This document shows positions 10,375 to 10,401 of a stretch of 64,000 bases of DNA, piece by piece. Made by a program: the position numbers and the translations under genes. The stretch lies in NCBI RefSeq assembly GCF_046105845.1, contig NZ_CP151004.1; one strand, written 5' to 3'. Source of the DNA: Escherichia coli. GTDB lineage: Bacteria > Pseudomonadota > Gammaproteobacteria > Enterobacterales > Enterobacteriaceae. Under the pieces are notes generated by a model, which was not told the origin of the DNA, made no database searches, and saw only the letters and a program-made list of their open reading frames with translations. Each line of letters starts with the position of its first letter. The first letter of the stretch is position 1.

Positions 10375-10401
10375 TCAGATTTATGACAGATTTATGAAAA
10401 G
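10375..10401 (-). promoter_or_regulatory. Pho box of the phoB promoter
   Basis: Minus-strand sequence cttttcataaatctgtcataaatctga contains tandem CTGTCATA-type repeats matching the known phoB Pho box, ~60 nt upstream of phoB ATG. Confidence 0.75.

Follow-up and report, generated by a model that had tools for sequence, protein, structure and literature searches.

The question raised by this Escherichia coli locus is whether the tandem repeats that lie upstream of phoB are the site through which PhoB regulates its own operon. The original prediction, made from raw sequence, placed a PhoB autoregulatory site at 10375-10401 of the window (the whole 64-kb stretch of DNA that was analyzed) and described it as tandem repeats ~60 nt upstream of phoB on the gene strand.

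Locus and anatomy of the phoB promoter

Of 5,426 complete E. coli genomes, 5,424 contain a match to a 961-bp query across the site, with identities of 95-99.6%, and the region is annotated there as phoB and sbcD. The gene order of the window is that of E. coli 042, namely secD ... malZ-proY-brnQ-phoR-phoB / sbcD-sbcC ... proC-adrA-psiF-phoA-iraP-ddlA ... lacIZYA. The identities of PhoB, PhoR, PhoA, PsiF, IraP, and SbcD were assigned with NCBIfam equivalog models, and every score exceeded its cut-off. Solved PhoB structures also match the PhoB protein of the window, including entries 1GXP and 3T72 (both effector domain), which we take to be a DNA-bound and a sigma-70-bound PhoB complex, respectively. 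The genes and the intergenic region of interest are as follows.

8277..9572, minus strand: phoR, sensor kinase, on a shared transcript with phoB that begins at the phoB promoter (NCBIfam NF008235, 889 bits)
9630..10319, minus strand: phoB, response regulator of 229 aa, which scores 540 bits with NCBIfam NF007546 (cut-off 471) and carries this annotation in the RefSeq records of matching genomes
10320-10508: phoB-sbcD intergenic region, 189 bp
10509..11711, plus strand: sbcD (NCBIfam equivalog)
24086..23748, minus strand: psiF (NCBIfam equivalog)
25602..24187, minus strand: phoA (NCBIfam equivalog)
25963..25703, minus strand: iraP (NCBIfam equivalog)

In Pho promoters, the Pho box replaces the -35 element, as described by Makino (1986/88) and Wanner (1996), and the placement rule of Makino and Wanner puts it in the -35 position, 10 bp upstream of the -10 hexamer and on the strand of the regulated gene. 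The box itself is defined as two 7-nt CTGTCAT-like direct repeats with a 4-nt A/T-rich spacer, that is, two 11-nt units (PMC4415409). Read on the phoB strand, the DNA upstream of the gene is GAGC-TTTTCATAAAT-CTGTCATAAAT-CTGACGCATAA-TGACGTCGCATTAATGATCGCAACCTATTTATTACAACAGGGCAAATC-ATG, with the ATG at 10319; in the inspected region (10300-10520), the stretch directly after the third unit on the minus strand begins TGACGTCGC. The elements of this promoter are listed below.

10390..10400, minus strand: 11-bp repeat unit 1, TTTTCATAAAT, the upstream PhoB half-site (from the sequence and a repeat search)
10379..10389, minus strand: 11-bp repeat unit 2, CTGTCATAAAT, the downstream consensus half-site (from the sequence and a repeat search)
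10368..10378, minus strand: degenerate third unit, CTGACGCATAA, an extra half-site that adjoins the box and overlaps the -10
10383..10400, minus strand: classical 18-bp Pho box, TTTTCATAAATCTGTCAT (TTTTCAT-AAAT-CTGTCAT), where PhoB binds to activate the phoBR promoter, 64-81 nt upstream of the ATG
10367..10372, minus strand: -10 hexamer CATAAT, which begins 10 bp past the end of the box

The defining repeats are present at 10400..10379 as TTTTCAT-AAAT-CTGTCAT-AAAT, and the placement is that of the rule, with the box ending at 10383, a 10-nt spacer, and CATAAT at 10372..10367. The repeat search found an exact 11-nt tandem duplication, two copies of CAGATTTATGA at 10376-10397. The box differs from the 18-nt consensus CTGTCATAWAWCTGTCAY at two positions, and a second consensus register, CTGTCATAAATCTGACGC at 10372-10389 (2 mismatches, 13.1 bits), is formed with the third unit. 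A sigma-70 -35/-10 scan of 10250-10560 returned no canonical promoter and no -35 hexamer; such an empty scan is no evidence against a promoter, since it is expected for an activator-dependent promoter that lacks a -35. The imperfect repeat D1 (10397-10423 and 10446-10472, 70% identity) and the inverted repeats I1 and I2 were put down to chance or A/T-richness.

Motif statistics and conservation of the box

The whole 64-kb window was scanned with the consensus CTGTCATAWAWCTGTCAY, allowing up to 3 mismatches. This gave 4 matches against 0.25 expected, a number reached in none of 100 shuffles. Two of them are the overlapping registers at phoB and one is the phoA box; the match at 57333-57350 (3 mismatches) was treated as chance. 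Table 1 of PMC10294691 lists 59 motif instances, and a position weight matrix (PWM) was also built from 56 of them, with both phoB sites and the phoA site left out. With this matrix, the phoB box ranks first of 127,966 window positions at 21.11 bits (P = 3.9e-9 per position), and 5e-4 matches of this score are expected per window. The next ranks are as follows.

Rank 2: phoA box, 20.71 bits
Rank 3: site inside phoB, 16.01 bits
Rank 4: position in lacZ, 15.07 bits, chance level (0.46 expected)
Rank 5: second register at phoB, 13.09 bits

The lacZ match (AGTCACGACGTTGTAATA, 57970-57987, minus strand, antisense in lacZ codons ~11-16, 15.1 bits) was treated as chance because ~0.46 such matches are expected at random and K-12 has no ChIP-seq peak there. 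The phoB repeats are real and far beyond chance.

Conservation was examined in a footprint set of one genome per species, in which loci were retrieved with a 10-letter phoB coding pattern ~156 nt into the gene and hence independently of the promoter. The search returned 120 gammaproteobacterial loci, 111 of them with a usable upstream region. A box of at least 15 bits is present on the gene strand in 104/111 phoB upstream regions, against 3/2,220 dinucleotide shuffles and 6/111 on the opposite strand. The orthologous boxes begin a median of 70 nt (range 58-135) ahead of the start codon. In an ungapped, box-anchored profile of 105 orthologs, ATAAT stands at the fixed spacing of +28 to +32 from the box with 1.3-1.8 bits per position, and the T, G, and A positions of unit 2 are invariant. 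Among the 33 Enterobacterales, unit 1 carries TTTCAT in 22, unit 2 carries TGTCAT or TGTCAC in 31, and CATAAT is found in 26. The footprint result agrees with Fig. 9 of PMC10294691.

Within the species, 5,383 of 5,424 complete E. coli genomes share an 81-bp core without a single difference, whereas 3,393 genomes differ by more than 1% over the surrounding 961 bp. One urine isolate, E. coli 2021CK-00607 (NZ_CP104665.1), has lost exactly 11 bp, one repeat unit, aligned to 10379-10389. The deletion leaves TTTTCATAAATCTGACGCATAAT and destroys the spacing between box and -10. Apparently, either the tandem repeat slipped during replication or the genome was misassembled here, and loss of phoBR induction would be predicted from the altered promoter. 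The exact tandem repeat makes the box slippage-prone, and this clinical genome lost exactly one unit.

Activation, auto-repression, and the divergent sbcDC operon

The window has the same base as K-12 MG1655 at every position between the start of the box and the ATG, the -10 included, and its coordinates were converted as K-12 = 417142 + 10319 - window position. Under low phosphate, PhoB ChIP-seq in K-12 gives a peak at 417093 (sbcD/phoB) with a score of 11 and the motif TTTCATAAATCTGTCATA (Fitzgerald et al. 2023, PMC10294691), and no PhoB binding is seen there at high phosphate (PMC10294691). In the expression data of that study, phoR RNA is 37,697/46,411 in the wild type and 374/403 in delta-phoB, a decrease of log2 6.8 or ~100-fold (PMC10294691). 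The phoB RNA value is 32,731 in wild-type K-12, and the drop in sigma-70 occupancy at phoB is, according to the authors, confounded by the deletion itself (PMC10294691). A phoB-yfp reporter is switched on by phosphate starvation (PMC6194859), and reporter mutagenesis and EMSA have likewise been published for the identical K-12 sequence. By identity with K-12, PhoB would be expected to occupy the box of the window and phoBR to depend on PhoB.

These data also bear on the idea that a tandem duplication of A/T-rich DNA arose here by chance and has no part in regulation. Intergenic regions are A/T-rich, and at many E. coli sites the binding of PhoB has no transcriptional effect (PMC10294691), which would fit such an origin. 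However, only 5e-4 matches of the phoB-box score are expected per window, the box and its fixed -10 spacing are kept in 104/111 loci compared with 3/2,220 shuffles, and phoR RNA is ~100-fold PhoB-dependent. Conservation, statistics, and published PhoB dependence together exclude a chance duplication, whose probability is vanishingly small.

The site is almost certainly the Pho box of the phoBR promoter on an E. coli chromosome, serving positive autoregulation by PhoB with a coupled negative feedback. The repeats, the -10 spacing, and the conservation are seen directly in the sequence; for the identical K-12 sequence, PhoB binding in living cells, the dependence of the operon on PhoB, and the site of repression have been published, and they would apply to the window by that identity. 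Evidence contradicting this reading was not encountered.

In the proposed mechanism, PhoR would phosphorylate PhoB when phosphate is scarce, and a PhoB~P dimer would bind head-to-tail to the two 11-bp direct repeats at 10400..10379 on the minus strand, which would stand in for the -35 element. The bound dimer would then recruit sigma-70 RNA polymerase to CATAAT, 10 bp downstream, and the resulting rise in phoB-phoR transcription would constitute positive autoregulation. The predicted transcription start is ~7 nt past this hexamer, close to position 10360. At high PhoB~P, a weak opposite-strand site across the -10 (10356-10384) would also be filled and the promoter damped, which would provide the coupled negative feedback. 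Head-to-tail binding was reportedly described by Blanco in 2002 (PDB 1GXP), and contact with sigma-70 region 4 is said to have been described by Makino in 1993 and Blanco in 2011 (PDB 3T72). By analogy with this established structural work, two effector domains probably bind head-to-tail and recruit sigma-70 region 4 at the box of the window.

The repression element occupies the following position.

10356..10384, plus strand (antisense): weak PhoB auto-repression site, AATGCGA-CGTCA-TTATG-CGTCA-GATTTAT, with CGTCA tracts at 10363-10367 and 10373-10377

In K-12, this antisense site around the -10 is a weak PhoB~P site with a KD of 4.9 uM (Gao and Stock 2018, PMC6194859), and mutation of both antisense tracts relieves auto-repression at high PhoB (PMC6194859). 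The oligonucleotide of Gao and Stock matches the plus strand of the window at 10356-10384 exactly. The ChIP peak center at 417093 corresponds to window position ~10368, ~23 bp downstream of the box center and over the -10 and the repression site, so that ChIP alone cannot assign the occupancy to activation or to repression.

The site had been proposed as the PhoB autoregulatory site of phoBR, and this is borne out by K-12 identity, the ChIP-seq peak, phoR dependence, and conservation in 104/111 loci. Since the repression site overlaps the predicted interval, "autoregulatory" comprises both activation and repression. The location was roughly right, with the interval edge 56 nt and the box 64-81 nt before the ATG. 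The interval 10375-10401 covers the whole classical box at 10383-10400, but its 3' end runs into the third unit and the auto-repression site. The operator could indeed be recognized from raw sequence, as a real site with correct coordinates and strand. The two checks proposed for it, a weight-matrix comparison and PhoB occupancy under phosphate limitation, agree with it through the first rank at 21.11 bits of 127,966 positions and the published K-12 peak 417093 on identical sequence, respectively.

An extra half-site that adjoins the box, which is the third unit, is also detected by FIMO (Gao and Stock 2018, PMC6194859). Among the 33 Enterobacterales, the third unit CTGACGCATAA keeps TGACG in 26 and TGAC in 31; no such conservation is seen in the full gammaproteobacterial sample (at most 0.33 bit per position). 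The proximal antisense tract (10363-10367) corresponds to TGACG in only 6/33 Enterobacterales, and its commonest form is TGGCG, carried for example by Serratia and Yersinia. The corresponding positions read GTCAT in 17/72 other Gammaproteobacteria, which suggests a possible third half-site in a shifted register.

The operator could also be a three-unit, 33-bp array, in which PhoB genuinely contacts CTGACGCATAA as a third unit on the gene strand and this unit owes its conservation to that contact, not to the antisense repression site. This would fit the second register CTGTCATAAATCTGACGC, with only 2 mismatches and 13.1 bits, the FIMO half-site of Gao and Stock, and the retention of TGAC in 31/33 Enterobacterales against 6/33 for the proximal repression tract. 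However, unit 3 reads TGACG or CGTCA depending on the strand, and its conservation thus cannot separate a three-unit array from a repression site. In K-12, repression was relieved once both antisense tracts had been mutated. Outside Enterobacterales, the third unit shows no conservation (at most 0.33 bit per position), and it abuts and overlaps the -10, where it may be constrained for promoter reasons. Such an array is unlikely, and a Pho box with an opposite-strand repression site is the preferred reading of the site. For Enterobacterales, a related and rather doubtful proposal is that the conserved operator is the three-unit TTTCATAAAnCTGTCAyAAAnCTGACGCATAATG, and that in most relatives auto-repression, or the binding of a third protomer at the -10, might have a geometry other than that of K-12. 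The differing repression geometry is drawn from retention of the third unit in 31/33 and of the proximal repression tract in only 6/33.

Control of the divergent sbcDC operon, instead of or besides phoBR, was also considered. The site lies within the 189-bp phoB-sbcD intergenic region, and the ChIP-seq table labels the peak "sbcD/phoB" (PMC10294691). However, the repeats face phoB, at a distance of 109-126 nt from the sbcD ATG, and the intervening TATAAT at 10473-10478 does not have the proper box spacing. In addition, sbcD RNA is unchanged, at 274 in the wild type versus 271 in delta-phoB (PMC10294691), and neither sbcD nor sbcC is among the differential-expression entries in the portion of the supplementary text that was covered (PMC10294691). 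Control of sbcDC by this site is thus highly improbable, and phoBR remains the preferred target. The perfect TATAAT at 10473-10478 (plus strand) is located 31 nt ahead of the sbcD ATG and is likely the sbcDC -10. A terminator-like hairpin at 10468-10485 overlaps this likely -10 and was judged to be probably spurious.

A further PhoB site is found within the phoB coding region.

10200..10217, plus strand: second PhoB site, ATTCACAGCACTGTCATA, on the strand opposite to codons 35-40 of phoB (PWM 16.0 bits, rank 3)

It corresponds to the K-12 ChIP-seq peak at 417245 with a score of 5 (PMC10294691). An antisense promoter at this site was rejected because TTCGAC, which stands where a -10 would have to be (10227-10232), is not a -10 hexamer. 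The site reaches at least 12 bits in only 10/95 orthologs, nearly all of them Enterobacterales with an AGY serine codon, and its conservation looks lineage- or codon-bound.

The phoA box, iraP, and comparison with known Pho systems

The original prediction also described the window as a dense cluster of Pho regulon members comprising phoBR, phoA-psiF, and nearby iraP. The phoA box is as follows.

25665..25682, minus strand: phoA Pho box, CTGTCATAAAGCTGTCAC, one consensus mismatch (20.7 bits, PWM rank 2)

This box begins 21 nt past the iraP stop codon and is followed by a 10-nt spacer and the -10 TATAGT (25654..25649), the same geometry as at phoB. At 25671 it carries a variant: the box reads CTGTCATAAAGCTGTCAC as in E. 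coli 042, and K-12 has ...AAAGTTGTCAC. With GCT in place of the K-12 GTT, it is one base nearer the consensus and scores 20.7 versus 19.7 bits. The presence of phoA-psiF with a strong Pho box, the second-ranked in the window, is therefore as predicted.

To our knowledge, iraP is PhoB-independent. No PWM match of at least 9 bits lies upstream of iraP among the top 25 positions. A lone GTCATAA half-site, tttGTCATAAAAATAATAC at 26040-26050 (minus strand), is present upstream of the gene; it has no second repeat and does not make a full Pho box. There is no ChIP-seq peak for iraP besides that of phoA (PMC10294691), and iraP RNA is only 2.3-fold lower in delta-phoB (PMC10294691). Induction of iraP on phosphate starvation runs through ppGpp (PMC4415409). 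With neither a PhoB site of its own nor a strong PhoB dependence, iraP is not a direct Pho-regulon member. The inclusion of iraP in the regulon fails on its missing PhoB site, its 2.3-fold change, and its regulation by ppGpp. The "dense cluster" reduces to two operons, phoB and phoA, 15.4 kb apart; the probability that some pair among ~9 operons lies that close is ~0.21, which is unremarkable.

The phoB Pho box has been textbook knowledge since the 1980s, and later studies mapped it by footprinting, crystal structures, reporter mutagenesis, and ChIP-seq. It is already known in full detail. The value of the present result lies in confirmation, it carries little weight as discovery, and the site can be used as a positive control for motif-spotting.

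The closest known system is phoBp of K-12 MG1655, which has the same promoter bases, the same flanking sbcD and phoB-phoR, and the same motif TTTCATAAATCTGTCATA. The strain of the window is not K-12, as seen from one substitution near sbcD, synonymous differences in phoB, and the variant phoA box, and the promoter has no differences. The K-12 phoBp Pho box was reportedly described by Makino et al. in 1986/1988 and is said to be recorded as the phoB promoter in RegulonDB/EcoCyc.

The pstS and phoA boxes, like that of phoB, consist of two CTGTCAT-like 7-nt repeats with a 4-nt A/T spacer, placed 10 bp before the -10 and replacing the -35. The pstS promoter has two tandem Pho boxes. The upstream half-site of phoB is degenerate (TTTTCAT), unlike those of pstS and phoA. 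The phoB promoter also has the weak antisense repression site over its -10, which phoA and phnC lack (PMC6194859).

The phoBR promoter of Vibrio cholerae has multiple Pho boxes, and its autoregulation is mediated by sites for PhoB that precede the phoB gene (Diniz et al. 2011, cited in PMC6194859). The Vibrio orthologs in the footprint set carry an 18.8-19.1-bit box, GGTCACAAAAGTGTCATA, at a distance comparable to that in E. coli. The two systems differ in their box sequences and in the number and arrangement of extra sites, and Vibrio is without the CTGACGC of the Enterobacterales type.
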